Below, in pieces: positions 532 through 14,710 of a stretch of 14,710 nt of DNA. The position numbers and the translations under genes were made by a program. Positions within the stretch are counted from its first letter, which is position 1. The number at the start of each line of letters is the position of its first letter. Below the pieces are notes generated by a model. The model searched no databases. It was not told the DNA's origin and worked only from the letters and a program-made list of their open reading frames with translations. The DNA comes from a virus (taxonomy: Duplodnaviria > Heunggongvirae > Uroviricota > Caudoviricetes): IMG/VR virus record IMGVR_UViG_2534682094_000013. One strand, given 5' to 3'.

Positions 532-942
532 CTACGCCTCCGGCAGTTCAGGCCAGATGACATCCGGTGCGGTGCTGGTATCTGTTGCCGTCACCGCGTC
601 GATATAATCCAGCACAACGTTAAGTCGGGTAGTTTCTTCTTGCGTCAGTTTGCGCCCGGCCTGCAGCTTTAACTGAATCACGCTGATATTGACCATTGCT
701 GCGTCTATCAGCGACTGTTTTTTCTGTTCAGCGTCAGCTACCAGTTCATCATGAGAACGTTCCGGAGTGGGCGGCGCAGTAAATCCCCCGTCTGAATACG
801 CCCAGCCGATTCCGGGCTGCTCACTGATATCAGAAATATTAATGAGCTGTAGATTATCCGGCACAGTGAATTCAGCCTCGCCATCCCAGGCAATTACATT
901 CACAACCATCCCATTTTCAATAACTGCATATGACGCATTCAT
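532..942 (-). CDS. Tail fibre assembly protein (gpG/Tfa-like)
   Basis: Track ORF 532..966. Start is taken at the ATG at 942..940, which overlaps the TAA stop of H (TAATG). Translation MNASYAVIENGMVVNVIAWDG... resembles phage tail fibre assembly proteins and sits immediately downstream of the fibre gene. Confidence 0.8.
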   Translation of the reverse strand: MNASYAVIENGMVVNVIAWDGEAEFTVPDNLQLINISDISEQPGIGWAYSDGGFTAPPTPERSHDELVADAEQKKQSLIDAAMVNISVIQLKLQAGRKLTQEETTRLNVVLDYIDAVTATDTSTAPDVIWPELPEA

Positions 943-2843
943 TATGCAAACTCCTCGATAATACAAATCCCTGCAGCGCCTTTCCCGCCCGTCATACTGG
1001 CTCCGCTATAACCAGCATCGTATGCACCACCACCGCCTGAACCATATGCCTTACCGCTAACACCACCGCCAGCGCCTGCGCGTCCACCGCCGCCCCAGTG
1101 CGATGTTCCGCCTTCACCGCTGACGCTGATATTCCCGGACTGACCGTCGCCTCCATTTCCACCAGTGATGTTGATACCGCCAGTACTTGGCACACCGCCG
1201 TTACCACCGTTCGTGTTTGTGACTCCTACTTTCCCGCCGCCTTCACCGCCAGGGGCTATTACCGTTCCGAACGAGCTATCACCGCCCTTGAGGCCGTTCG
1301 TCGCACCAACACCGCCGCCCCCACCTGCGCCGATAGTGACAGGATAACTATCCTTCGTCAGGATCAGCGTGACAATTGCTGTTCCCCCAGCCCCACCGCC
1401 AGCACCGAAAAACGTTTCGTTATTGGATGTAGCCTGGCAGCCGCCCCCACCGCCACCGCCGCCCGTTATTGTGACCCTGATTCGTTTTGTTCCTGGCGTC
1501 GGGGTGTACGTACCTGATGACGTGAAAATTCGAGTGTTTACAAGGCGTCCAACATATCCGTTTGAATCGCTCAGGCCAAGGTCAGCAGTGGTAGGTTTAA
1601 TATGTGAACTGTAAATTACATAGACCGCTCCATCTGTCAGGCCTGTCGGTTTATTCGCTGTATAAGTTGGTGATGTATGAATCGTTACGCTGGCGTTACT
1701 GGTATAATCCCACTGGATATTTACACCCGTGGCGTAACCACCTATTTCAACATAAACATCATAGGTATCACCGGATGTATTCACCCATGCAAAATTAGTA
1801 AATCCAACCGATGTCCGTCGCCATAACGCACCAGTAAGACCTTTTGGATTCCCATTTCCCGCACGAAGAACAAGTTCAGATATACCAGCCTGCATAGGGG
1901 AGTTAACATTATATCCAGAACCACCAATCAGGCTTATGTAAACTACGGAACTTGCCTGTGGCATGGTTACAGTTGCCAGCTTGAACCATCCTGCACCACC
2001 AATAAAAGACATGGTTGTTGAATTTGTTGCACCAATATTGCGCAGGAATAATCTTTTATCAGGAATATCCGCACCGTTCTGATCTTTCTGAAGACGTTTC
2101 TCAGCATTGTCATAGGCAGACTTCACCGCTTTCGGTGTTGCGGCCAGCGTTTCAGAAGTGCTATTGGTGGCGCTACTGAGCTGGACAAGACCTTTTCGCG
2201 CTGTGGTCGCGTCCTGTGCGGTATATTTCCCGTTAGCAAGGTCATATGCTGTCTTTACCGCCTTTGGCGTTGCCGCAAGCGTTTCAGAATCGCTGTTGGT
2301 TGCGCTGCTTAACTGAGTAAAACCTTTTGCGGTCAGCGATGCATCCGGGTGTCGTCGTGACTGTTCGTGTTCTGAGATTTTGTCATCCACATATTTACGG
2401 GTCGCCAGTACCACCGACGGGTCGATTTTCAGCGTGATGGCTTCGGTATTCGAGACAGCCAGAATCATGCGGATAGTCTGGGTACGACCACTGCCTTCCT
2501 GCAACTGCGGTTTGTACGTTTCCGGGCAATTCGCCACCGCAATGAGTACGCCTTCATCATCATAAAGCCCAATCTCACGGATCCAGAATCCTCCCTCGTT
2601 TTCAGGGATAATTTGTTCCGCAATAATCTGGCTCTGATTGTTAGGGTCAACACTCAGAAGATTCAGCGGTGCAATGCGTTTCTGGTTAATCAGTTTTGTT
2701 TGTGCAGGGTCTGGTGTTGGTAACACACCATTTGCATCACCAACGGCCATTTGCGTCAGATTCAGCTTACTGCCGAGCATCGTCGCGTTAGCCAGTCGTG
2801 CCGCGCCCTGATTAGTCAGAATGGCGTAGTATTTCACTGTCAT
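942..2843 (-). CDS. Tail fibre protein gpH (P2-type N-terminal domain, glycine-rich C-terminal domain)
   Basis: 633-aa intact ORF. The N-terminal third matches P2 gpH as I recall it (GGFWIREIGLYDDEGVLIAVAN, EHEQSRRHPDASLTAKGFTQLSSATNSTSETLAATPKAVK). The C-terminal roughly 200 aa are Gly-rich, including an octa-glycine run. The ATG at 2843 overlaps the stop of I. Confidence 0.9.
   Translation of the reverse strand: MTVKYYAILTNQGAARLANATMLGSKLNLTQMAVGDANGVLPTPDPAQTKLINQKRIAPLNLLSVDPNNQSQIIAEQIIPENEGGFWIREIGLYDDEGVLIAVANCPETYKPQLQEGSGRTQTIRMILAVSNTEAITLKIDPSVVLATRKYVDDKISEHEQSRRHPDASLTAKGFTQLSSATNSDSETLAATPKAVKTAYDLANGKYTAQDATTARKGLVQLSSATNSTSETLAATPKAVKSAYDNAEKRLQKDQNGADIPDKRLFLRNIGATNSTTMSFIGGAGWFKLATVTMPQASSVVYISLIGGSGYNVNSPMQAGISELVLRAGNGNPKGLTGALWRRTSVGFTNFAWVNTSGDTYDVYVEIGGYATGVNIQWDYTSNASVTIHTSPTYTANKPTGLTDGAVYVIYSSHIKPTTADLGLSDSNGYVGRLVNTRIFTSSGTYTPTPGTKRIRVTITGGGGGGGGCQATSNNETFFGAGGGAGGTAIVTLILTKDSYPVTIGAGGGGGVGATNGLKGGDSSFGTVIAPGGEGGGKVGVTNTNGGNGGVPSTGGINITGGNGGDGQSGNISVSGEGGTSHWGGGGRAGAGGGVSGKAYGSGGGGAYDAGYSGASMTGGKGAAGICIIEEFA
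2109..2318 (-). repeat. Tandem 44-codon repeat inside H (two copies of the ...QLSSATNS(D/T)SETLAATPKAVK(T/S)AYD... motif)
   Basis: Protein residues 176-201 and 220-245 are near-identical, and the underlying DNA copies (2241..2318 and 2109..2186) are clearly related. Confidence 0.6.
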
Positions 2844-3403
2844 GCGTTTACTCTCAGATTATCAATTAAATGAATGACCGGGGCAGGGAAATAATCCCCT
2901 TCGACAATAATGGACTCCGGGGTGTAGGGATAAACCGTCAGGGCATCGCCGTGATAGCATCCCGTACCAACGAAAATATTTCCGTTCACACTCAGGCTGA
3001 TCGCCAGCCCTGTCAGATGGCGACTTACTGGTTTTGCATCCGCAATAAGGCGCTCAAGTTCCTGATACATTTCATCTGTGATGCCCTGATCAAGTACTCC
3101 GACAACAATGCGAAATGTTCCCGGCTCCTCGTTGAGTTGCCACCACTCCTTTACTTCAATCAGGTAGCCGAGAGGCTCCACGGCTCTTCGCAGTGCGCTG
3201 ATGGTCCCTTTGTGTCGGTGTATCAGCCATGCATCACGAATAACCTGTCGCTTTGTCTCTTCCGGCCAGTTGCGATCCCAGCGGTCAACGGAAAAGCCCA
3301 GGCGAGATAAGGCAGCAGATGCACCGGGCAGGTGTCCGGCGACCACAGCGTGTTGAGGTCTACCGGAATGTCTGTAATGCGTGTTCCGACGGCTTCGGCA
3401 CAA
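2840..3403 (-). CDS. Baseplate assembly protein gpI (largest frame; true N-terminus in another frame starting near 3447)
   Basis: Translation SVDRWDRNWPEETKRQVIRDAWLIHRHKGTISALRRAVEPLGYLI... matches P2 gpI. The gpI N-terminus (MSNSLLPP...NTLWSPDTCPVHLLPYLAWAF) is in the 3223..3480 ORF frame, so a 1-nt frameshift lies near 3290-3310. Confidence 0.75.
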   Translation of the reverse strand: MCRSRRNTHYRHSGRPQHAVVAGHLPGASAALSRLGFSVDRWDRNWPEETKRQVIRDAWLIHRHKGTISALRRAVEPLGYLIEVKEWWQLNEEPGTFRIVVGVLDQGITDEMYQELERLIADAKPVSRHLTGLAISLSVNGNIFVGTGCYHGDALTVYPYTPESIIVEGDYFPAPVIHLIDNLRVNA

Positions 3404-3439
3404 CGCATGAAATTGCTGGCTGATGGTGGTAACAACGAA

Positions 3440-4331
3440 TTACTCATTGCGTCCACCTTCGCTGATGGTGAATGACTCACAGCGCGCCGCCTGTATGTCG
3501 CTGATGGCCATATTCTGTGTGGGTTCGATTATCTCCACGCGTTGCACACCGTGCACATGCAGTGCGGCAGCAATGGCGGACAACGCCACGTCCTGACCGA
3601 TAAGTCCCTGCTCAGCCAGCCACTTCCTGAACGACGATTCCGCCGCAGCCAGAATAGGTTCGGATTCCGGGCCGGGGTAAAAGTACAGTTTTGCATTCAG
3701 CCGCCATGTCACGATTCTGGCGCTCTGTACGGTCAGGCGGTCGGCCACCGGGCGGGTATCCTCTGCATTCAGAACGGCGCGAACGGTATTAAGCAACGCC
3801 TCCGTTGCTGTGCCGTCGCCCTCAGTGGACAGGATGGAAACCGTCACATTTGCCGGAGACGGGCTGATAGCCCGCGCATCACGCACCAGACCGCTGGCGC
3901 TGCGGGCAAAATACTCGTATGCACCTGACGGGCCAGCAACACTCAGGCCGTCGTACGCCCGTGCGCCCGCAGTCTCAGCGAGGTGTCGCTTCCATCACCG
4001 CGTCGGTGGTATCCGTTGCCGGAGTGATAACCAGGCGCTTTGTGTTCATATTGCCTGCGAGGTTGTCCAGGTCTGTCCCGGCGCTGTGGCTTAACATCAG
4101 GCGCGTGCCCCTCATTACCCGCTGGCGTAACAGCATTTCACGAAACGACATGGTTTGAGCGATAACGTTAAGGGGTTCCGATTCCAGCTCCAGCGCGGCG
4201 GAAACGGCTTCACGCTGTTCGGCGGGATAGGACGCAATCATCATGGCTTTTGTGTCAGCCAGAATTGCTTCAAAGTCAGGCTCCGCGATGATGGCGGGTT
4301 CCGGTAACTGGGAAAGGTCAACGGCGGGCAT
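3440..4331 (-). pseudogene. Baseplate assembly protein gpJ, split by at least two frameshifts
   Basis: N-terminal fragment 3975..4331 (MPAVDLSQLPEPAIIAEPDFEAILAD...) and C-terminal fragment 3440..3886 (...RPVADRLTVQSARIVTWRLNAKLYFYPGPESEPI...) both match P2 gpJ. The middle lies in a third frame, and the 892-nt span is not a multiple of 3. Confidence 0.8.
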
Positions 4332-4399
4332 GATTTACTCCCTCAGCGTGATGGTTAACTCAACATTCTGCATGGTCTGCATGACAGTGCCCGACAGTG

Positions 4400-4684
4400 T
4401 CACCCCGGCGGGCCTCCCGCTTTCCAGACAACGTCGATGGCATCCAGGGCAATGCGGGGTTCCCATCGTGTCAGCGCAATCACGGCAGCACTCATGCATT
4501 GCAGACGCGTGGTGTTATTCATGGGTTCGTCAATCAAATCAGGCACAAGGCTGCCATATTCCCGTCGCATAACCCGGCTGGCCAGCGGGGTGGTCAGGAT
4601 GTCCCTGACTGACTGTTTCAGGTGCTCCATATCATTCAGGTTTCCCGTTCCGTCCGGGTTCATTCCTGTGTAGCGGGTTGTCAC
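4400..4684 (-). CDS. Baseplate protein gpW (gp25-like); C-terminus truncated by a frameshift, true stop at 4335..4337
   Basis: MTTRYTGMNPDG...SVRDILTTPLASRVMRREYGSLVPDLID matches gpW. The ORF ends at the C4 run 4403..4406; adding one C restores ...GVTLSGTVMQTMQNVELTITLRE ending 6 nt before the J start. Confidence 0.75.
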   Translation of the reverse strand: MTTRYTGMNPDGTGNLNDMEHLKQSVRDILTTPLASRVMRREYGSLVPDLIDEPMNNTTRLQCMSAAVIALTRWEPRIALDAIDVVWKAGGPPG

Positions 4685-5277
4685 TGCGGGCCTCCTGTCG
4701 AATCGCTGCCACCTTTAACACCACCGTGTTTATGCGTATGCACTGTGATGCCGTTTGAGGTGAAATCGCCGCCGCTGTGCGTGATATTGCCGCTCATCTT
4801 TCCTCCTTTTGTGACGTCAAGCGTCGCTGTTCTCAGAAGGTTTGTGCATTCCACGACGGGCGTGTCCAGTGTCACGCTGACGGATGCCTGTAAAGTGGCC
4901 GTTTTCATGCCGCTGGCGCTCAGTGCGCCTGCGTCCGCGTCGTAGCGGAACACCGCGCCATCCGGCGCGCTGATCACGATTTCTTTCAGGCTTTTGCCGG
5001 GGGCCGGACTGGCATCACTCCACAGGCTGCCAATTATCATGGCGGTTTCCGGGTTGCCGCCAATGCAGGCAATTACCACCTGTTCGCCTGGTGATGGCGG
5101 CAGCCACACATTGAAGGCTCCCGCGCGCGTGGTGTTCCAGCGCAACCAGCCTGTTTCCAGTTCGCCGCTGCGAACGCGCACGCACCAGGATTCCTCATCA
5201 ACTTCAGAGATGATCCCGGTCGGATGATGTTGCTCAGCAGTCGCATGAGTTCTGCGCTCACCGTACAGCCTCCGCAA
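4681..5277 (-). CDS. Baseplate spike gpV; N-terminus appears frameshifted (probable true start GTG at 5261)
   Basis: C-terminal 170 aa match gpV (...GNITHSGGDFTSNGITVHTHKHGG). The gpV-like N-terminus (MSAELMRLLSNII...) is in the 5073..5261 frame and joins the main frame near 5215. Confidence 0.75.
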   Translation of the reverse strand: MRRLYGERRTHATAEQHHPTGIISEVDEESWCVRVRSGELETGWLRWNTTRAGAFNVWLPPSPGEQVVIACIGGNPETAMIIGSLWSDASPAPGKSLKEIVISAPDGAVFRYDADAGALSASGMKTATLQASVSVTLDTPVVECTNLLRTATLDVTKGGKMSGNITHSGGDFTSNGITVHTHKHGGVKGGSDSTGGPQ

Positions 5278-5887
5278 TCCGGCCCAGCACCGTGTTATAA
5301 ATCAGGCGCTCATCTGCCTGGCTGATACCCAACAGCTCACGTACCGGGTAATCGGTGAAAATGCCCGGCGCAACCTGATCGCGCTCACCGAACTGATGAA
5401 CGCGGCAATACGTGCGGCCACGCCGCTGTAACCCACCGTCACACCGGAAGCATCTGCACGGGCTTTCAGGTAGCGGGCGGTGCGCAGTTTTACGAACATG
5501 GGGACGCGCTTTGTGCTGTCCTGGTTGATGCGCCGGGTGCGTATTTCCAGAAAACGGTCGATGTCATCCCGGTAAAACGTGCGGATATTGTTTTTATCCT
5601 CATCCCACCCGGTAATGGTTCGCCCGTATTTCCCCGTGTCGTGATGCCAGTTTTTCAGCGTGCGTGCTTCGTTATTCCAGATAAAGCGAATGCGTCCTGT
5701 ATCCGGGTTACGCGGCGTCTGCGTGGTGTCCAGCGTCCCGTCCGGCGCTTTCTGTGACCGGATACGGCCTGCTGGGCGCGGCGTAAATCCTGTGCCAGCT
5801 TTCTGGCGATGTTATTGATGGCCTGCTGATTCAGGCTGTCGCGGATGCCTCAAAGGTTTCATCCACGCGGGTGAATGCCTTATCCAT
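5258..5887 (-). pseudogene. Tail completion / virion morphogenesis protein gpS-like, multiple frameshifts
   Basis: ATG at 5887 overlaps the R stop (ATGGATAA). By hand translation, gpS-like segments (MDKAFTRVDETF / ...IRDSLNQQAINNIARKLAQDLRRAQQ / ...MFVKLRTARYLKARADASGVTVGYSG... / ...LIYNTVLGRIAEAVR*) lie in different frames. No intact ORF covers the span. Confidence 0.65.
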
Positions 5888-6342
5888 CGCTTTCACCCCA
5901 CGTCACATCCTGGAATACATGCGACCAGTCGCCTTCGGAAGAGGCAGGCGGGGTTTTGGCTCGGCAGGTGTTCTGCCTGCGGTGTGCCCTGACTGCTGCG
6001 CTGATGCGAACGCGTTCCCGCAGGGGGAGCGTAAACAGGAGATCGGCGCTGTCATCGTCATTGATAACGGCGGAGAATTTGATGTCCTGATTACGCTCGG
6101 TTGAGCAACAACTGTGGCTGATTTTCGGATAACCACGCCAGCAGCGGCAGCGTGAGGTCGTCCAGCTCCCCGGCGTAATCCATGACAAACATCACCATCT
6201 GATAGCGGTAAACAAACGAGGGCGTTTCTCCGGTCGTTTCAATGTTGCCGCTCTCCACGAAAATGGTGAATTTTTCCGGGTTAGCCTGACACCATCGGCA
6301 TGAACGGGTCATGGCTTCACGCAGGGAATCAGTTTTCAGCAT
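5880..6342 (-). pseudogene. Tail completion protein gpR, one frameshift
   Basis: N-terminal fragment 6091..6342 (MLKTDSLREAMTRS...LPLLAWLSENQPQLLL) matches gpR. It continues in the 5880..6188 frame (ERNQDIKFSAVINDDDSADLLFTLPLRE...) after a 1-nt deletion near 6105-6112. Confidence 0.75.
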
Positions 6343-6619
6343 GGTTGTTGTCCTCGTTGTTCAGTCGTTGCAGCCTGCGCTGTTCCAGTAATTCAATGGC
6401 CCGTTTATCAGCGTTACAGGTTTCCAGTGCATCCAGAAGGCGGTCGCCCCATATACCGAGATTTCCCCATGTGGGAGTGTCAGGGAAGGGGGGAGGCGTT
6501 ACCGGTATGGTCAGCGTCTGCGGTATAAGCCGGACTGACGGCGCTGGCAGTGGCGCGTTCTGCGTGCCTGCGCAACCTGTCAGTAAAACGAGCGTCAGGC
6601 AAAGCGTGGGCGCATTCAT
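6329..6619 (-). CDS. lysC: Outer-membrane spanin lipoprotein (LysC / Rz1-like)
   Basis: Start taken at the ATG at 6619. Signal peptide with lipobox (LLTGC), Pro-rich mature region. Begins embedded out of frame in lysB and extends past its end. Confidence 0.7.
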   Translation of the reverse strand: MNAPTLCLTLVLLTGCAGTQNAPLPAPSVRLIPQTLTIPVTPPPFPDTPTWGNLGIWGDRLLDALETCNADKRAIELLEQRRLQRLNNEDNNHAEN

Positions 6620-6887
6620 CTTTTGCAATATCGTTGCGTAGCTGTTCACGTCTGGCCTCTCCGTCCTGATTTCTCTGTTGATTTTCCACGCGGAGTTGCG
6701 CCAGCACCTGCTGCATATCCTGTACCCCGGTGCTGATGATATTCAGGGTGTCGACGGTACTTTTCAGGGCGCTGGCCTGCGCTTCGTTTCTGGCGTTCTC
6801 CCGGCCCAGCGACCACGACAGACGCATGGATGTTCCCCATGCGGCAATCAGAAGGAAAGCGACACCCAGCGTGGGCCAGAGCTTCAT
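6480..6887 (-). CDS. lysB: Inner-membrane spanin (LysB / Rz-like)
   Basis: Start taken at the ATG at 6887 (MKLWPTLGVAFLLIAAWG...), giving an N-terminal TMD followed by a charged, probably coiled-coil region. The track ORF extends upstream to 7031 into the endolysin gene. Confidence 0.7.
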   Translation of the reverse strand: MKLWPTLGVAFLLIAAWGTSMRLSWSLGRENARNEAQASALKSTVDTLNIISTGVQDMQQVLAQLRVENQQRNQDGEARREQLRNDIAKDECAHALPDARFTDRLRRHAERATASAVSPAYTADADHTGNASPLP

Positions 6888-7276
6888 GCCGGATAGGCTC
6901 CGTGTGGTAACTGAAAATGCGGTCCGTCTTTCAGGGTCTTCCAGTCGCCGCCCCATTCCACCGGAATATTCAGTTCCCGGCTGGCCTGTCTGAATGCTGC
7001 TGCGATTTTTTCGTACAGCGGCCATTCCCATGACACCTGGCTGCCGATATAAGCCACAACATCCACGGCATGTCCCGTAAGGTGGCGGCTGTTCATGGTC
7101 TGGCTCTTACCCGTGGCCACAAGTTGCTTCTGGCGGTAACGACTGCGCAACCCTTCGGTGATACCAAAATCCACTTCCGAAATTTCCAGTGCCCGTCGGG
7201 TCACTTTCACCAGATCAGGATTTACGCCCTGCAAATTCTTTTCGCTCCGGCTGCTGAATTTAAATGTGTTGCTCAT
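6884..7276 (-). CDS. Endolysin, peptidase M15-like (L-alanyl-D-glutamate peptidase type)
   Basis: 130-aa intact ORF with SRHLTGHAVDVV and a distal His, as in M15 endolysins. Sits between holin and spanins; start overlaps holin stop. Confidence 0.65.
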   Translation of the reverse strand: MSNTFKFSSRSEKNLQGVNPDLVKVTRRALEISEVDFGITEGLRSRYRQKQLVATGKSQTMNSRHLTGHAVDVVAYIGSQVSWEWPLYEKIAAAFRQASRELNIPVEWGGDWKTLKDGPHFQLPHGAYPA

Positions 7277-7491
7277 TCGTCCTTCTCCTTCACCCTGCGA
7301 TTAAAGGCTGCAATAACCTTGTCGCGTGCTTTCTCTGCGCCCATAAAACCGATTGATGCGCCGATAAACGTCACGGCATCTTCAGGAAAACCGAAGAAGC
7401 GCAACGACCCGGCCACGGCCATGGCAAGAACGCCGCACGCCAGCGATCCCGTTACGGTCTGAACCAGTGTTCGTCCGTCATAAAGACTCAT
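7273..7491 (-). CDS. Holin (class II-like, two TMDs)
   Basis: 72 aa with two hydrophobic segments (TVTGSLACGVLAMAVAGSL, AVTFIGASIGFMGA) and a charged C-terminus (EKARDKVIAAFNRRVKEKDE), immediately upstream of the endolysin. Confidence 0.6.
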   Translation of the reverse strand: MSLYDGRTLVQTVTGSLACGVLAMAVAGSLRFFGFPEDAVTFIGASIGFMGAEKARDKVIAAFNRRVKEKDE

Positions 7492-7595
7492 CAGCGCGGA
7501 AATGCTGACCGCCGCGCCTCTGCATACACCGTTGGCAGGTGGTCAAAGAGCCACGCAATAACCTGCTCTGTGATCCCTGTTTGAATGGTGCTCAC
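7491..7595 (-). CDS. Hypothetical 34-aa ORF between X and holin (GTG start, GGAG RBS); possible holin partner or detached holin N-terminus
   Basis: GTG at 7595 lies 6 nt downstream of GGAG. Its TGA stop overlaps the holin ATG (TGATG). Not in the supplied ORF track (under 60 aa). Confidence 0.3.
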   Translation of the reverse strand: MSTIQTGITEQVIAWLFDHLPTVYAEARRSAFPR

Positions 7596-7597
7596 TG

Positions 7598-7798
7598 CTA
7601 CTCCCCCCACAACTGAATCATTTCTCGTTTCTTCTTCTCCGGCTCCGGCATCTCCACTTCCTGCCCGGCGTCCAGAAATACCTGCTGACAGAGTCCGGGG
7701 TTGGCATCCAGCACCTTTTCGGTGACGCCCTGCGTCGTGCCGTAGTACCGGAAACAGAGCGAATCCACGGTGTCGCCTTCCAGTGCCTTCACTTTCAT
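7598..7798 (-). CDS. Tail protein X (gpX, LysM-like)
   Basis: MKVKALEGDTVDSLCFRYYGTTQGVTEKVLDANPGL matches P2 gpX. The track starts at GTG 7804; the ATG at 7798 fits the P2 N-terminus better. Confidence 0.75.
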   Translation of the reverse strand: MKVKALEGDTVDSLCFRYYGTTQGVTEKVLDANPGLCQQVFLDAGQEVEMPEPEKKKREMIQLWGE

Positions 7799-7836
7799 CA
7801 GCACAACTCCGCAAAATTCGCGGGCGGCACAGAATG

Positions 7837-8287
7837 TCAGAGATGGCCCAGCTCACATCCGCCACAAATCCGATGTCTGTATATCCAGGCGTCCGCCCGG
7901 CGGTCGCCCTTGTCCGTTGTGTCTGCATCACGATAACGCTCCAGAATCAGGGCGCGCGTGGCGGTATAAACAGCATTGCGCCAGTGCCAGAGATTGACGC
8001 TTTCTCCGTTAATTACGGGTGCCGGAACATCGGCCAGCGTCTGATGGCCAGCGCCTGCTGTTCCTGCTGCCAGCTTCCAGCTCGCGGGTAACGTGTGCCA
8101 CGCCCCGGTGGCTATGCAGCAGGCGGGAGGTGGTCACCGCCCGGCAGTCGTACCGCCAGACGCAGTCCGCAGCACAATATCCGGCCAGAATGCACCCGCT
8201 GAAATCGGGTATCCCATCATCGGTATCGGTGATGTCGTCCTCTGCGGGTCCGGGGTTGGTTCTGGCAACCATACTCATGGGGTTCAC
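7837..8287 (-). pseudogene. Head completion protein gpL-like, frameshifted
   Basis: The position between M and X, and a Cys-containing N-terminal fragment (8009..8287: ...DFSGCILAGYCAADCVWRYDC...), suggest gpL. A second frame (...LWHWRNAVYTATRALILERYRDADTTDKGD...ICGGCELGHL*) ends at 7837. The exact junction is unresolved. Confidence 0.5.
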
Positions 8288-8372
8288 TCCTGAAAAAATC
8301 GGGCGGTGGGTGCGCGGTGTAAACGGTCACGGAGTCAAACCGGAACACCGCGCACGCCGCCCGCTGACGGGG

Positions 8373-9153
8373 TCAGTCGTTAACCGCGCTTCGCCTTCTG
8401 CGTCGCGGTGGTTTTTCGTGTTGCAGGCTTCCGCGTTGTCTTTTTACTTTTGCTGCTTTCGTCCTGCGCCTGCTGTGCGCTGGCGTCTTCTGGTCGGCTG
8501 CGGAATCGGCTTTTTTCAGGGCGCGGGAAAGGGTTGCAATCTCGCGTTTCACACCTGCGTTCGGGTTCAGGTGCATGCTTCGCGCAGCAGCTTCAGTGAA
8601 GGCCATGTGTCGCATCTCAGCCACGCGGGCAAAGGCGCACGCTTGCATAATTTGGCGCGACTTCGTCCGGCATGTCCTGGTCGGTGACAATCTCCGGAGG
8701 GTGTCCAGGGTTCGATAAAGGCGGAAAATCCGCGTCGGCATCCGCCCGGCCTGCGTCAGTACCGGTTCAGATTTCTTCGGTCAGACGTGGCAGCAGTACG
8801 GCCAAAGTTATCCGGCATATGAGGTTTGACGGACCACATACGCCCATACGCACGCAGCGGAAGATCGCCCAGTCAATCGCCCACACCATCAGCGTGGCAA
8901 TCACTTCATCCTGCTGCCCGCCGTCAGCCTCCAGCGTTCCCTCAATCCAGCCGGAAAAATCCGGCAACAACTCTTTTTTGATGGCGGCTTTCGCGCTTCT
9001 GGCCTGTACGCCCTTAAGCCGGGCCTGTGCCAGACGCAGACGATACAGCACCTCTTCATGCGCGGTACGCGCGGCGTGGTCCACGCCTTCATTCGCCCGG
9101 CCTGCGCGCTGTGCCATCACGTTCTGCCAGTGTTGCTGTGCAGGAGTAATCAT
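8373..9153 (-). pseudogene. Terminase small (endonuclease) subunit gpM, at least two frameshifts
   Basis: N-terminal fragment 8767..9153 (MITPAQQHWQNVMAQRAG...KKELLPDFSGWIEG...) and C-terminal fragment in 8373..8741 (...HLNPNAGVKREIATLSRALKK... with a basic tail) both match P2 gpM. The middle lies in another frame. Confidence 0.8.
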
Positions 9154-9170
9154 TTGTTCTCTCCGTTACA

Positions 9171-9189
9171 GGCGGGCATGATGCCCGCC
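9171..9189. other. GC-rich hairpin in the N-M intergenic spacer
   Basis: GGCGGGCA-TGA-TGCCCGCC: 8-bp perfect stem with 3-nt loop, between the capsid gene stop (9216) and M start (9153). No U-tract on the transcribed strand. Confidence 0.35.
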
Positions 9190-9215
9190 GTGAGTTGATT
9201 AGCTGTCGGCGAACT

Positions 9216-10250
9216 TCAGACCAGTGACCATGCGCACTTGCCATAGTCTTCAACGACATAAGCGTCATTGATGGACTGGTAGGTGGCGATGCGGTTGTAT
9301 TCCGGCTCGTCTTTCATCAGGCGACGCATTGAGCCTCTCTGCCAGTAAATTGACAGGTTGTTGAATGAGGTGATCAGCATCGTTGCATCCGGGAAGAACG
9401 GCGCAAGGAATACATCCAGCCCGCCAATGGTGCGCGATGACAGGATGAGCTGTCCGGCGAGTAATTCCGCATTGGGATTCTGGCCGCTGATGCTGTTCAG
9501 CACGGGCAGGCGTAGCGAGTTAAACAGGTTGCGCCCCATAATCACCACGAGGTCGTCAGCTTCCTTGTGCCATTCATCCAGCAGGGATGAGCGTGCGTCC
9601 TGTACCAGTGCATCAGCGTTCGCATACTTACCCGCGTGCGCCACGGTGTTGTCCATGTTGCGGGAGGTCAGCGTCACGTCATTCATAACGCGCTCGCTGG
9701 CGTCGGTTCTGATGTGCTCCAGCCAGCCCACGTTAACGTCCTGAAGCAGCTTGTTGGTGCTGAAGTTGGACTCATCCGCGTGAGACGTGCCGTTGAAACC
9801 GATCATGATGCGGTCAAGCGCCACCTGTCGGGCAATCTGTGCGCTGATGCGGGACTGAAAATCAGGGTGTGCCGACCAGGCATCAAGCTTCGGATACGAA
9901 ATAAACGTGTCGTAGTTCACCTGTTCGCACTGGTATTTGCGGTTTTTCAGATCAACCACGTTATTCGGGTTACGGCGTTTTGTGCCGTCATAACTGGTAT
10001 TCGTGCGTGCAATTGGCCCGGTGGTGTCCAGGAGGATTTTTTCGCCTTTCTGGTCGGTCACGCCGATCACGTTAATTCTTTTTGTAAATTCGGTACTTTC
10101 CTTTGAGGCGTTTTCAAAACGCTGCTGTACCGAGGGTTCCACGGTAAATCGCGATACCAGTGCAGATACCGGGATATTGTTAAGCGACGCCTGCTGCGCC
10201 ATATAGCAACCCAGCTTGTTGCGGGTAATATCTGACATCACCAGATTCAT
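9216..10250 (-). CDS. Major capsid protein gpN
   Basis: Intact ORF with strong P2 gpN similarity throughout (FTVEPSV...QKGEKI...NRKYQCEQVNYD...LQDVNVGWL...DDLVVIMGR...MLITSFNNLSIYWQ...YVVEDY). Start is taken at ATG 10250 (AAGGAG 8 nt upstream), not the track's 10304. Confidence 0.9.
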   Translation of the reverse strand: MNLVMSDITRNKLGCYMAQQASLNNIPVSALVSRFTVEPSVQQRFENASKESTEFTKRINVIGVTDQKGEKILLDTTGPIARTNTSYDGTKRRNPNNVVDLKNRKYQCEQVNYDTFISYPKLDAWSAHPDFQSRISAQIARQVALDRIMIGFNGTSHADESNFSTNKLLQDVNVGWLEHIRTDASERVMNDVTLTSRNMDNTVAHAGKYANADALVQDARSSLLDEWHKEADDLVVIMGRNLFNSLRLPVLNSISGQNPNAELLAGQLILSSRTIGGLDVFLAPFFPDATMLITSFNNLSIYWQRGSMRRLMKDEPEYNRIATYQSINDAYVVEDYGKCAWSLV

Positions 10251-10272
10251 AAAAATTTGCTCCTTTGTCTTA

Positions 10273-11047
10273 TCAGAAGTCAGCCAGCTGGTCGGAGGCT
10301 GCACCTGTTGCGGTGAACCGGTTCTGCGGATCGCCGTCCTGCGTGCGCAGTTTTTCCTTCAGTGCTGTCAGCTCTGTGGTCAGTGACGTGATTTTCTGGC
10401 GGTCCTGCTGATGGCGGGTTTCCAGCACATTAAAACGGTCGATAATGTCGGCCTGTGACGTTGCGACCCTTCCACGCTTCCTGAATACGGGAGAAACTGG
10501 CGTCATCCGCTTTGCGGCCACGACCAATAATCCCCATACGCGGTTAAACCACTGGGTGCCTTCTTCCTGCGTTGTTCGATTCGATATTCGACTCATGCCG
10601 GAACGCTCCCCTGACGTTGAAGTCATAGCTACGTTGTGTGCCGAAACAGCGTCGTGCCCAGGCTGCGGGGTGTCGGTCATGCCAGCCCGCAGTAGGCCCC
10701 CGTAGGACTGGGTCAGTCATACTGGAATAGATTTTCTTGCCGTCCGCGACAAGCTGCTTCATGCGCTCGGTCGGTTCGATTTCTGCATACAGCGCAGTAC
10801 GTCCGGCCAGCGGACCTTCCGTAATGTCTTCCGTACTCAGTGCGGTGACATCGCCCATTGCGGAAAATTCGCTTGACGGGCATGGCGAGAGATAGTGCTC
10901 AACGTTCACGCGGGCAGCGTAAACATCCGGGTTGAAGTTCTCGGCGGCTTCACGCAGATGTACCGGGCTGATTTCGCGGCCATCAACAGTTGATCCGGAG
11001 ACAGCCACGCGAAACTTTTTGCGGGATGTCTTTTTTTCATTAGCCAT
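10273..11047 (-). pseudogene. Capsid scaffold protein gpO, frameshifted
   Basis: N-terminal fragment in 10544..11080 (MANEKKTSRKKFRVAVSGSTVDGREISPVHLREAAENFNPDVYAARVNVEHY...) and C-terminal fragment in 10273..10680 (...LTTELTALKEKLRTQDGDPQNRF...) match gpO. The centre is out of frame, and the 775-nt span is not a multiple of 3. Confidence 0.8.
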
Positions 11048-11201
11048 AGTTTTTGCCCCTCTGACTGGTTCTTCAGTCATGATGGCAAAGCGTAACAGGC
11101 TGACACAAAGGGCTTTTGTTGTAAGAAAACGGCCAGAACAGGGGGTTAAGGAGAACAGTTTCGCGCGCGGGTAATCTTCCTGTAATTACTCAGGGGGAGC
11201 A
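11048..11201. promoter_or_regulatory. Divergent intergenic region between O (-) and P (+); expected site of the two late promoters
   Basis: 154-bp gap between divergently oriented operons. Contains an imperfect dyad ACAAAGGGCTTTTGT (about 11104..11119) and a strong SD (GGGGGAG) before the P start. In P2 both late promoters here depend on Ogr; no consensus match is claimed. Confidence 0.4.
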
Positions 11202-12940
11202 ATGATTCAGGACGCTTTTGTGCGCCAGCGTGCGCGGCAACTTTACTGGCAGGGTTATCCGCCCGCAGAAATATCACGTCTGATGGGAATAAACCCGAAC
11301 ACGATTTATGCGTGGAAAAAACGCGACCAGTGGGATGAAACGCCACCCGTGCAGCGTGTCACGCAGTCCATCGATGCGCGCCTCATCCAGCTCACTGAAA
11401 AACAGAATAAAACAGGTGGTGACTTCAAGGAAATAGACCTGCTGACCCGGCAGCTTAAAAAACTGCATGATGGCCAGCCGGATGTGATGGCCGCAGGAAA
11501 GAAAGGCCGGGCGAAAAAACTTAAAAATCATTTCACGCCGGAACAGATTGCCGCACTGCGGGAAAAAATCATCAGCAGGCTGGAGTGGCATCAGCGGGGC
11601 TGGTTTGACTCCCTGACACTTTGCAGGGAAGCCGGGATACGTAACAGGATGATCCTGAAATCCCGACAGATTGGGGCGACCTGGTATTTTGCACAGGAAG
11701 CCTGCTGATGGCGCTGCGTGACGATGTGGCGCAACCTTACCAGCGTAACCAGATTTTTTTGTCTGCGTCGCGTCGTCAGGCGTTCCAGTTTAAAAGCATT
11801 ATTCAGAAGGCCGCGGCTGAAGTTGATGTGGAGCTGAAAGGGGGCGATAAAATCATCCTCTCCAACGGCGCAGAGCTGCATTTTCTCGGCACTTCTGCTG
11901 CGTCGGCACAGTCCTATACGGGCAATTTTTATTTTGATGAATTTTTCTGGGTCAGTCGCTTTGCCGAACTGCGCAAGGTGGCTGGCGCTATGGCAACCCT
12001 CAGCGGACTGCGGCGCACCTACTTCTCCACGCCATCCACCGAAACGCACGAGGCTACGCCTACTGGAACGGCGACCGCTGGAACGAGAAAAAGGCCCGCA
12101 TAAACGCCAGCGTTTTTCTGTGGACTGGAAAACGCTGCATAACGGGCTTATCTGCCCTGACCGGACTGGCGGCAAATTGTCACGCTGGAAGATGTGGTTA
12201 ACACGGCTGGAAACACACCAATATCGACGAAATTCGTGATGAAAACACCGAAGACGAGTTCCTCAATCTCTATATGTGTGAGTTTGTCCGCGAAGGGGAA
12301 TCGGCATTTAACCTGAATATCCTGATTGGCTGCGGTGTTGACGGATACGACGACTGGAAAGACTGGAAACCTTTTGCTCCCCGCCCATGGGGAATCGTCC
12401 GGTATGGATTGGGTATGACGCAAACGGCAGCAGTGGCAACGGCGACAGCGGCGCTGTGTCCGTGGTGGTTCCTCCGGCTGTTCCTGGTGGCCGTTTTCGA
12501 ACGGTGGAACGCGACGCGTTCAGGGGCTGGAGTTTGAAGAACAGGCCAGAGTCATTGAAGAGTTCACGTGTCGCTACAACGTGGAACACATCGGCATTGA
12601 TGTGACGGGCGGGAACGGGGAGGCTGTTTATCAGATAGTGAACGTTTTTCCCTGCGCTATTCCGTACACCTTCACGCTGTCATCAAACGGTCGCTGGTAC
12701 TGAAAATGCTGCAAATAATGCGTGCCGGCGTGGGAATACGATCGCGCCGAACGCGAGCTGGTCGCGGCCTTTAACGCCGTGCGTAAGGTGAAAACACCGG
12801 GCGGCTTTATCACTTACGAAACGGACCGCGCGAGGGGGATCAGCCACGGCGACCTTGCGTGGGCAACCATGCTTGCTGTCATTAACGAACCAATTGGCGG
12901 CGAAGGAGAAAACGAGCGTTTCACGGTTATGGAGTTCTGA
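11202..12940 (+). pseudogene. Terminase ATPase (large) subunit gpP, at least five frameshifts
   Basis: Fragments 11202..11708, 11708..12103, 12274..12537, 12387..12605 and 12722..12940 each match consecutive parts of P2 gpP (QLYWQGYPPAEI..., NQIFLSASRRQAFQFK...GNFYFDEFFWV..., MCEFVREGESAFNLNILIGCGVDGYDDWKDWKPFAPRP, GNRPVWIGYDANGSSGNGDS..., ...SHGDLAWATMLAVINEP...). The 1739-nt span is not a multiple of 3. Confidence 0.85.
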
Positions 12941-13983
12941 TGAGCAGAAAAAATAAAAAAGTGCGCATGAGTTCACGCATTGATCTCGCTGATGCGCTCA
13001 GGAAAGAATCGTCGCTCAGTGCATTCACATTTGATGGCCTTATCGCCTGACCGGGCATGACCTGCTGGATAATATGTACTGTGCTGATAACGGGCGGTGG
13101 TATGAAACCCCGGTGGACTGGTACGGTCTGGCAAGAGCTGCCCGGCAAACGTCCTGGCATCAGTCTGCGCTTTACTTTAAGCGCAATGTATTGCTCGGTT
13201 GCTACATCCCGCACCCGCTGCTTTCCCGGCAGGATTTCTCGGCGTGGCGCTGGACTGGTTTGTGTTCGGTAACGCATTCCTTGAGCTTCGGAGCAATATG
13301 CTCGGCGAACCACTTAAATTACGGCACGCACTGGCGAAATACATGCGACGCGGAAGCGATCTTGAATCATGGTGGTATGTGCAGGATGGCAAGGACGCGT
13401 TTCAGTTTCGCCCTGGCAAAGTGTGCCACCTGATGAATCCGGACATTAACCAGGAAATTTACGGCATGCCGGAATATCTTGGCGCATTACTCTCGGCCAG
13501 CCTGTCTCATTCGGCGGACATGTTCAGAAAACTGTATTACGACAATGGATCCCACGCCGGGTGCATCATCTACATCGGTGCAGCGCAGGTAAACCGCGAA
13601 AGCATGGACTCCCTGAAAGAAACGTTACAGGGTGCGCGTGGTGGTGGGCGTTTAAAAACGTGCTCATCCATGCGCCCAACGGGGGCAAAGAGGGGGTGCA
13701 AATTTTGCCGTTCCAGCAGATCACCGCAAAGGATGAGTTCATGAATGTTAAGGCGGCATCCCGTGATGATGTGCTGGCTGCGCACCGCGTTCCGCCGCAA
13801 CTGATGGGGGCGATGCCGGGCGAAAAAAGTGCGTTTGGTGATGTGGAGAAGGCCGCGCGGGTTTACGCAATTAACGAGCTGATGCCCGTCATGGAGGCCA
13901 TGAAGCACATCAATGACTGGCTTGGCGAAGAGGTGATCCGCTTTAACCCTTACGCACTGTTAGACACCCAGCCCACATCCTGA
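12940..13983 (+). pseudogene. Portal protein gpQ, at least three frameshifts
   Basis: ATG at 12940 overlaps the P stop (ATGA). gpQ-like segments lie in frames 12940..13048 (MSRKNKKVRMSS...), 13074..13433 (...NGRWYETPVDWYGLA...YFKRNVLLGCYIPHPLLSRQDFS), 13199..13744 (...DWFVFGNAFLE...NPDINQEIYGMPEYL...YYDNGSHAG...) and 13561..13983 (...KNVLIHAPNGGKEGVQILPF...AAHRVPPQLMG...). Confidence 0.85.
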
Positions 13984-14009
13984 CGCGCTTCGCTTGTCTG
14001 CTGCTTCGC

Positions 14010-14034
14010 CGGGGCATAAAAAATTTATGCCCCG
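14010..14034. other. Perfect hairpin just downstream of the portal gene (possible terminator or protein-binding element)
   Basis: CGGGGCATAAA-AAA-TTTATGCCCCG: 11-bp perfect stem, 27 nt after the Q stop. No flanking T-tract on either strand. Confidence 0.4.
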
Positions 14035-14407
14035 ACTCTCCAGCTCCTGTATCAGTCAGATAATTTCACGACGCTTTCCTGCTTATTGCCATCATCGACA
14101 GTCAGACTCTTACGCAATCCCACCGCGTTGACTGCATGTTCTCGCCGTCTCAGTGCGATTTTGACGGCCTTACCTTTCACCCCATCAAATCAAAAGCCCT
14201 CACGTCTTTTTCACGCTCAGCGTGAGAAATATAGCCATTCTGTTGTGTCGCTGCGACATCGTTCAGGGGATGCTATTTACCCCCTGAAACGCGGGCTGTT
14301 CCCCCGTCACCTGCGCGCAGAAAAAACGCGTTTTTTTGTGCACGCACGGATCCTTGACGGATCCAGCCGCCATGCGGGCCGGAAGGGCAAAAAGTCGTTC
14401 AAAAAAA

Positions 14408-14434
14408 TTGTGCAAATTTGTGCACTATTGTGCA
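14408..14434. repeat. Three direct TTGTGCA repeats phased at exactly 10 bp
   Basis: TTGTGCA at 14408, 14418 and 14428 (aTTGTGCAaat TTGTGCActa TTGTGCAaac), at the point where composition switches to AT-rich. Confidence 0.5.
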
Positions 14435-14557
14435 AACCGAACGGAGTGTTTATTTATAGAAAAATTGAGCCTATGTATACGACGTTGCTTATAAATACAT
14501 CCCTGACTGTTATGTGAAAATATGCAAAGAAAATTACATGCTATGGAGATGAGAGTT

Positions 14558-14597
14558 ATAACGACCTTTTCTACTTATTTGTAAAAGAGGTCGTTAT
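14558..14597 (+). promoter_or_regulatory. Hairpin that would sequester the SD and start codon of the downstream small ORF
   Basis: 5' arm ATAACGACCTTTT (14558..14570) pairs with 3' arm AAGAGGTCGTTAT (14585..14597): 13 bp with one G-U pair, 14-nt loop. The 3' arm contains AAGAGG and the AT of the ATG at 14596. Confidence 0.4.
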
Positions 14598-14691
14598 GTA
14601 TAAAGTTAAATTATTTTTTACTCTTGATATGTGTAAAAAATATAGCTTTGATGTTTATATTTTATTAGAATACATTATTTATCCTCTTTAA
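14596..14691 (+). CDS. Hypothetical 31-aa peptide (MYKVKLFFTLDMCKKYSFDVYILLEYIIYPL)
   Basis: ATG preceded by AAGAGG at 6-nt spacing; 31 codons to TAA at 14689..14691, in the AT-rich terminal segment. Not in the supplied track (under 60 aa). Could be a chance ORF. Confidence 0.3.
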   Translation: MYKVKLFFTLDMCKKYSFDVYILLEYIIYPL

Positions 14692-14710
14692 TGATTTTGT
14701 TATAGTCAAA

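Follow-up and report, generated by a model that had tools for sequence, protein, structure and literature searches.

The window analysed here is a stretch of 14,710 nucleotides (nt) from a tailed phage (Caudoviricetes; IMG/VR record IMGVR_UViG_2534682094_000013), and the question that it raises concerns a single gene: what is the glycine-rich end of a tail fibre that otherwise begins like the fibre of phage P2, and how does it relate to the ends of other fibres? Our analysis leads with high confidence to the following answer. The gene encodes the tail fibre of a P88-like (Peduoviridae) Escherichia coli prophage, and the fibre is a mosaic of five modules, namely a collar, two shaft repeats, a middle module, a distal tip of 211 amino acids (aa), and a separately encoded tail fibre assembly chaperone (Tfa). 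The tip is a member of the Gly_rich_2 family, predicted to adopt the fold solved for the fibre protein gp24 of cyanophage Pam3. An earlier reading of the window, made from its letters and referred to here as the sequence-only reading, had drawn attention to this gene and left its strand unstated; it is the minus strand.

942-2843, minus strand: tail fibre gene (gpH equivalent), intact, 633 aa, ATG start, from the list of open reading frames (ORFs) and the translation.
2394-2843, minus strand: residues 1-150, tail-collar fibre N-terminal domain (PF12571, E 9.9e-63, profile positions 1-150 of 150).
2076-2339, minus strand: residues 169-256, two tandem 44-aa "phage tail fibre repeat" units (PF03406 twice, E 1.5e-41).
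1578-2075, minus strand: residues 257-422, beta-rich middle module with no Pfam match.
945-1577, minus strand: residues 423-633, the tip, predicted to be a tumour necrosis factor (TNF)-like beta-sandwich with an inserted glycine-rich lattice, Gly_rich_2.
532-942, minus strand: Tfa (gpG equivalent), 136 aa (PF02413 Caudo_TAP, E 1.4e-21; phrog_188).

The identity of the tip is carried by family membership, homologue searches, and predicted structure. The sequence-only reading had proposed a domain search and a structure prediction for the C-terminus, and these returned a curated family and a confident Pam3-like model. Specifically, residues 442-630 match PF21722 (Gly_rich_2) on profile positions 2-224 of 226, with 45.2 bits against a gathering cutoff of 24.3. 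An exhaustive HMMER search with residues 421-633 against 1.84 billion cluster representatives (50%-identity clusters) recovered homologues in 7,785 clusters at E ≤1e-3 and in 1,308 at E ≤1e-10. In nearly all of the best 150 representatives, the domain runs to the very C-terminus of the protein, consistent with a location at the distal end of the fibre, and most of these share the final strand G.G(I/V).(I/V)(I/V)EE(F/Y)(A/S). Among the viral proteins of BFVD, 273 match the tip at E ≤1e-3. These include a fibre from the E. coli jumbo phage Goslar (69% identity) and proteins from phages of Xanthomonas, Edwardsiella, and Achromobacter, along with others from cyanophages, mycobacteriophages, and giant viruses.

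The AlphaFold2 (AF2) model of residues 421-633, built on an alignment of 52 diverse members, has no disordered segment, with a predicted local distance difference test score (pLDDT) of 94.9 and a predicted template modelling score (pTM) of 0.89. It describes a beta-sandwich with an inserted glycine-rich lattice, superposable on the Pam3 structures 7YPX and 7YFW. When the model was compared with known folds, the Pam3 fibre came first (7ypx_A; score 23.3 over 196 residues, 2.5 Å, 31% identity), followed by gp33 and gp29 of mycobacteriophage Bxb1 (18.2 and 12.9) and by the glycine-rich domains of invertebrate and human ALK (8.2-9.3); the next match was an unrelated enzyme (5.2, 66 residues). Foldseek placed the matches in an order that agrees. 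Because a profile made from 52 homologues matches Pam3 gp24 across the whole domain (E 5.4e-15), the relationship is one of homology and not only of resemblance.

Some points weigh against this account. As a single sequence, the tip did not match Pam3 gp24 significantly in a phmmer search of the Protein Data Bank (PDB; E ~1-3), and the significance of the match comes from the profile and the fold comparison only. The model is of a monomer, and a trimeric tip is proposed by analogy with Pam3. By the same kind of analogy, the glycine-rich stretches may have a polyglycine-II-type backbone; this suggestion draws on the superposition on Pam3 and on the DSSP assignment, which gives neither helix nor strand for most of these stretches despite pLDDT >90.

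Published work on the fold describes the kind of structure that the model resembles. Cryo-electron microscopy of Pam3 gp24-gp25 revealed a trimeric fibre that ends distally in a TNF-like sandwich, with six long loops coming off it and 12 glycine-rich motifs stacked in a four-layer lattice through main-chain hydrogen bonds (PMC9608196). The sequence diversity of gp24 rises towards the distal tip, the proposed receptor binder, and the chaperone has a conserved helical C-terminal domain related to the Tfa of Mu (PMC9608196). Furthermore, a Klebsiella phage fibre with the same fold, 32% identical to gp24, has been reported to recognise lipopolysaccharide (LPS), and its host-adaptation mutations fall in the glycine-rich domain (PMC12671077). 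No receptor study of the glycine-rich domain in P2-like or E. coli fibres came up in literature searches, and only gp38-type glycine motifs are mentioned in the RBPseg atlas, the Burkholderia pseudomallei fibre paper, and the PinQ paper.

An argument can be made that such a composition reflects no fold at all, and that the region is a low-complexity or disordered spacer of collagen-like or PE-PGRS-like type, or a compositional accident. Residues 436-633 are 34% glycine, with runs of up to eight residues, compared with 4-13% in the three preceding segments of the fibre (binomial p ~1e-23 on a background of 8.7%). The motifs include GGGGGGGG at residue 461, GAGGGAGG at residue 480, and GGNGGDGQSG at residue 561. 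In addition, the low-complexity filter of BLAST hides most matches, and a few BFVD matches carry collagen-like or PE-PGRS names. Set beside the ordered model, and beside an alignment of the 52 members in which every column that is invariant or at least 90% conserved is glycine except one serine, an unfolded region is already contradicted, and we give it practically no probability. The sequence-only reading had described the last 200 or so residues as dominated by glycine; the overall content and the motifs that it quoted bear this out, and its picture needs amending to include a separate module of about 165 aa (257-422) that intervenes between this region and the N-terminal part. Two cysteines accompany the glycines. 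Cys469 (1437-1439), right after the G8 run, is the majority residue across diverse homologues ("GGGGGGGGC.A"), and in close E. coli relatives Cys627 (963-965) is part of the final strand ("GICIIEEFA").

The tip is found well beyond P2-type fibres. Together with Tfa, it occurs in at least four unrelated E. coli phage lineages (P2/P88-like, P1-like plasmids, Mu/e14-like, and Goslar), as illustrated by the following carriers, for which identities are to the window.

Classic P2-like prophage of E. coli HS: tip 92%, Tfa 92%.
E. coli CPF6 (P2-like): tip 92.5%, Tfa 92%.
P1-like phage-plasmid of 93 kb: tip 96%, Tfa 85%.
Mu/e14-like prophage, adjoining stfP: tip 91.5%, Tfa 89%.
Lytic jumbo phage Goslar: tip 69.5%, Tfa 65%.

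When the junctions are aligned, the sequences upstream are unrelated and homology starts at "LGLSD.SGYVGR(L/W)", at about residue 423. Every context examined has Tfa beside the tip, at 65-92% identity; tip and downstream Tfa travel together as one cassette. Judged from these alignments, the tip has clearly been exchanged horizontally between phages, in keeping with the general statement of the sequence-only reading that fibre C-termini are passed on in this way.

The Tfa itself has the layout of a Pam3-type chaperone. It belongs to PF02413 and combines a conserved C-terminal half with a module-specific N-terminal half, and it is predicted to act as a chaperone. The C-terminal half (nt 525-717) has 85% DNA identity to the Tfa of phage 500465-2, and the N-terminal half is without counterpart there. 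The Tfa beside this tip is annotated in several RefSeq genomes as a pseudogene "missing N-terminus" (L003 3588-3938, L004 3582-3938, L001 3591-3941). At those loci, tblastn found 134-136 of the 136 residues encoded right after the fibre stop, 85-92% identical, and the N-terminal half is probably unrecognised by the annotation model.

The module that precedes the tip has its own distribution. It is 91% identical in Yersinia phage vB_YpM_39 (L006 2230-2721) and 82% identical in the P1-like phage JL22 (L007 3013-3468), in both of which it leads into C-termini that differ from the tip of the window; in the fibre of a P1-like plasmid, about 1.4 kb separates it from the glycine-rich tip downstream. 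By its sequence relatives, then, the middle module is an independent building block that precedes different tips in other phages. Its AF2 model (residues 250-440) contains eight strands and is of low confidence (pLDDT 55.6), coming from a shallow alignment of 11 sequences.

That the middle module occurs with other tips, and that C-terminal chaperone domains are common in fibres, could be taken to mean that the glycine-rich domain acts as an intramolecular chaperone and is cleaved off once the trimer has formed, as happens in T5 pb1 and the K1F endosialidase, and that the receptor-binding end lies in the middle module. This arrangement sits poorly with a dedicated downstream Tfa that co-transfers with the tip. 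Moreover, the homologous domain of Pam3 has been described as the host-recognising distal part, and its chaperone is released from the fibre (PMC9608196); nor does the domain match the helical chaperone domains of the T5 pb1 and K1F families. We therefore regard a cleaved chaperone as extremely improbable.

How might such a tip confer specificity? Across 55 different, closely related E. coli tips, entropy averages 0.11 at glycine positions and 0.39 at the others, and the variation clusters at residues 489-499, 518-528, and 556-563. The invariant glycines would form a scaffold, and these variable non-glycine segments would sit at the distal end as the likely contacts with a receptor, presumably LPS or an outer-membrane protein. 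Following the Pam3 example, Tfa would most likely grip the unfolded tip through its variable N-terminal half and aid trimerisation of the fibre; tip and Tfa would therefore have to move together, which is the co-transfer observed. The cassette recombines at the conserved "LGLSD-SGYVGR" joint. Tentatively, and with rather less than even confidence, we suggest that tip-plus-Tfa, bounded by this joint, may be a self-contained portable host-range cassette, possibly for a receptor unassigned in coliphages, whose specificity would be set by the three variable segments.

A catalytic role has also been implied for this domain by database names. Stand-alone E. coli proteins of 308 aa (P0115, P0116), which consist mainly of the Gly_rich_2 tip (90% identical), are called "carbohydrate kinase" in NCBI. 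On that basis, and given conserved motifs such as DGQ, WGGGGRAG, and GSGGGGAYD, the C-terminal domain could be an enzyme, whether a depolymerase, an esterase, or a kinase of this sort, and not a pure binding module. No evidence found here supports the name, which is probably a misannotation, and we consider an enzymatic tip very unlikely.

By implication, the sequence-only reading had presented the C-terminus as out of the ordinary, and in this it was mistaken. An identical 633-aa protein is present in NCBI (P0002, 100%), where full-length relatives at 90-93% identity are also listed, and the fibre gene was found on 11 contigs. Many E. coli proteins annotated as "phage tail" or "tail-collar fibre", including common P2-like fibres, carry tips about 92% identical, with one cluster on 260 contigs; near-identity of this kind is the outcome that the sequence-only reading itself had named as leaving nothing unusual. 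By megablast, tip DNA at 80-95% identity is present in 270 of the 5426 complete E. coli genomes, at 277 chromosomal and 77 plasmid places; the exact allele of the window is in none of the 5426 (best 95% DNA identity) and is present in draft assemblies. A filtered tblastn of residues 400-633 against the phage collection, in which glycine runs are masked as low complexity, returned only four records, among them Goslar and two 24-residue matches, and unfiltered local tblastn and HMMER were used for the tip instead. With a curated Pfam family and a solved homologue in Pam3 gp24, the protein, the domain family, and the fold of its homologue are already public, and the fibre is an ordinary, catalogued E. 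coli prophage gene. The value of the locus as a discovery is small. Its practical value is modest: the clean joint near residue 423 and the rule that the tip goes with its Tfa can guide host-range engineering of P2-type phages or tailocins.

The proximal part of the protein is that of a P2-type tail fibre, as the sequence-only reading held, with PF12571, PF03406, and the gene order I-H-Tfa. Among PHROG profiles, the whole protein matches phrog_6202, "tail fiber protein" (E 1.6e-266); NCBIfam gave no match for the fibre or Tfa. Residues 1-150 would be the part that docks the fibre on the baseplate. The tandem 44-residue repeat noted earlier is plain in self-comparison, which has a sharp peak at offset 44 (29 matches; other listed offsets ≤12), and the units at 169-212 and 213-256 are identical at 26 of 44 residues. 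Residues 199-275 align with the fibre S protein of Mu (PDB 8ju3, E 1e-20; 5yvq, E 3e-18). Copy number of the repeat varies: the fibre of E. coli CPF6, 94.7% identical, is longer by 132 nt, or one unit (L001 5162-5519). The fibres of P2, Wphi, and 186 align only to residues 1-250/271, which agrees with the earlier view that the C-terminus is unlike the receptor-binding domain of P2. The companion claim, that the first 250 or so residues are typical gpH, is right for P2, which aligns over 1-250; it is too broad for the nearest phages, where DNA homology stops at about residue 156.

The glycine codons also leave a trace on the opposite strand, where three stop-free stretches are rich in proline.

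1012-1140, plus strand: Pro-rich stop-free antisense stretch, 44% proline (frame analysis).
1144-1344, plus strand: Pro-rich stop-free antisense stretch, 42% proline (frame analysis).
1348-1611, plus strand: Pro-rich stop-free antisense stretch, 22% proline (frame analysis).

All three lie in a single plus-strand frame, one base offset from the fibre codons, and two of them are represented among the ORFs of 60 aa or more (1165-1347 and 1369-1614). GGN codons give CCN on the opposite strand when the frame is shifted by one base, and these stretches are therefore by-products and not genes, which was also the judgment of the sequence-only reading. The antisense ORF that is in phase with the fibre (1098-1517) is rich in alanine and threonine, not in proline.

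The surroundings of the fibre gene add two features.

2840-3448, minus strand: baseplate/tail protein gpI, directly upstream and overlapping the fibre start (PF09684 Tail_P2_I).
420-445, no strand assigned: hairpin between the convergent gpU and Tfa genes, with a 10-12 bp stem and a U-rich tail on each strand.

The fibre is thus flanked on its own strand by gpI upstream and Tfa downstream, the ATG of Tfa overlapping the fibre stop codon (TAATG), and the order V-W-J-I-fibre-Tfa is intact in sister assemblies. In the window gpI is frameshifted, such that tblastn of the P88 protein is split over two frames; in the sister assemblies it is intact, at 202 aa. On one strand the hairpin folds with -13.9 kcal/mol (z -3.3) and on the other with -14.8 kcal/mol (z -3.6); it is likely a bidirectional terminator that closes the fibre operon; a consensus terminator scan did not list it.

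The window is identical (100%) to a contig of an E. coli draft assembly (AQAR01000289.1, locus L012), and 78-86% of its length aligns at about 96% DNA identity with 500465-2, P88, and relatives, phages of the P2 family. At least five sister assemblies contain the same prophage. Its best copy, on an 81-kb contig (L010), runs from the terminase large subunit to gpI, then to gpU, tape measure, tube, and sheath; the neighbouring genes are intact there except for a split major capsid gene, and gpD is split into two ORFs. Relative to P88 and the sister assemblies, positions 2840-14434 of the window contain about 124 indels, nearly all of them deletions of 1 nt (for example at 3296, 3962, 4411, 5404, and 7520), and they crowd together at 8000-9000 and at 10500-11000. 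The reading frames of gpI, J, W, S, R, holin, L, terS, scaffold, terL, and portal are shifted by them, with flanking amino-acid identity of about 100%. Since the sister assemblies are intact or broken elsewhere, we attribute the indels to errors of assembly and not to decay, which places the fibre in an apparently complete prophage. We also considered that selection had kept the fibre in an otherwise decayed prophage, and rejected this, as the genes are intact in sister assemblies and the breaks differ from one assembly to another. P88-type homology stops at about 14434-14437, and the last 210 bases (14501-14710), at 25% GC, may be a prophage boundary or flanking sequence.

Comparison with known systems places the fibre more precisely. 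P88 and 500465-2 are the closest by genome, with about 96% DNA identity in the head, lysis, baseplate, and gpU genes and in the first 156 or so fibre codons. Three stretches of this part of the window are homologous in DNA to 500465-2, namely nt 1-449 (gpU plus hairpin), nt 525-717 (C-terminal half of Tfa), and nt 2376 onward (fibre codons 1 to ~156, 97% DNA identity), and what lies between them is a different module. Unlike the window, these two phages have a DNA invertase in the space from gpU to the fibre, together with an invertible segment that encodes an alternative fibre end and two Tfa genes (L002 446-2467, L009 446-3150). Positions 410-532 of the window, from the end of gpU to the end of Tfa, hold only a hairpin, and neither the invertase nor the alternative fibre end of P88 had a tblastn match in the window. 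The locus accordingly lacks the serine invertase and inverted alternative end that define fibre switches of the Mu G, P1 C, and e14 P type. Because there is a single Tfa and only a hairpin between gpU and the fibre, this lineage has a fixed fibre and not a switchable one, and the cassette occupies the position of its relatives' invertase-switched segment. With P2 the likeness is confined to one end: gpH shares the collar N-terminus and the repeats (67-70% identity, residues 1-250), and the gene order I-H-G with a downstream Tfa is the same, whereas the distal 380 residues and the N-terminal half of Tfa are different modules.

Other systems resemble the tip alone. In the T-even adhesin gp38 (Salmonella phage S16, PDB 6F45), according to literature cited in PMC9608196, a scaffold of glycine-rich motifs presents hypervariable receptor-binding loops. 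This invites the idea that the tip is a fused homologue of gp38 adhesins (S16, T2, or T6 type), which bind outer-membrane proteins through such loops. However, gp38 is a separate protein and not a fused domain, it has no TNF-like sandwich, and S16 gp38 (6F45) gave neither a sequence nor a fold match to the tip in our searches; we hold this origin to be highly doubtful, and retain the Pam3-type assignment. The ligand-binding "TG" (TNF-like plus glycine-rich) domain of ALK and LTK (PDB 7LIR, 7NX3, 7LS0) belongs to animal receptor tyrosine kinases. Its Foldseek TM-scores to the tip are low (0.26-0.31), and the fibre has no sequence-level match to its family, Gly_rich (PF12810). Bxb1 gp33 ("wing brush") and gp29 (PDB 9D93) differ in being accessory proteins of a siphophage tail tip, with 21-33% identity, a Gram-positive-type host, and a different mode of attachment. 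Pam3 gp24 and its chaperone gp25 (PDB 7YFW, 7YPX) are only about 30% identical, with an unrelated host and receptor. The Pam3 fibre is also minimal, a helical stalk and a tip in about 280-290 aa, in contrast to the window, where the tip is grafted on a P2-type collar, repeats, and a middle module. The nearest parallels to this graft are in prophages and phages of E. coli: the P2-like prophages of HS and CPF6, the P1-like phage-plasmids, the Mu/e14-like prophage, whose carrier is annotated as a "glycine-rich domain-containing protein" and adjoins stfP, and Goslar, in its gp090. All of them have the same junction motif followed by a similar tip and Tfa, and differ in the parts of the fibre upstream of residue 423, which are unrelated.

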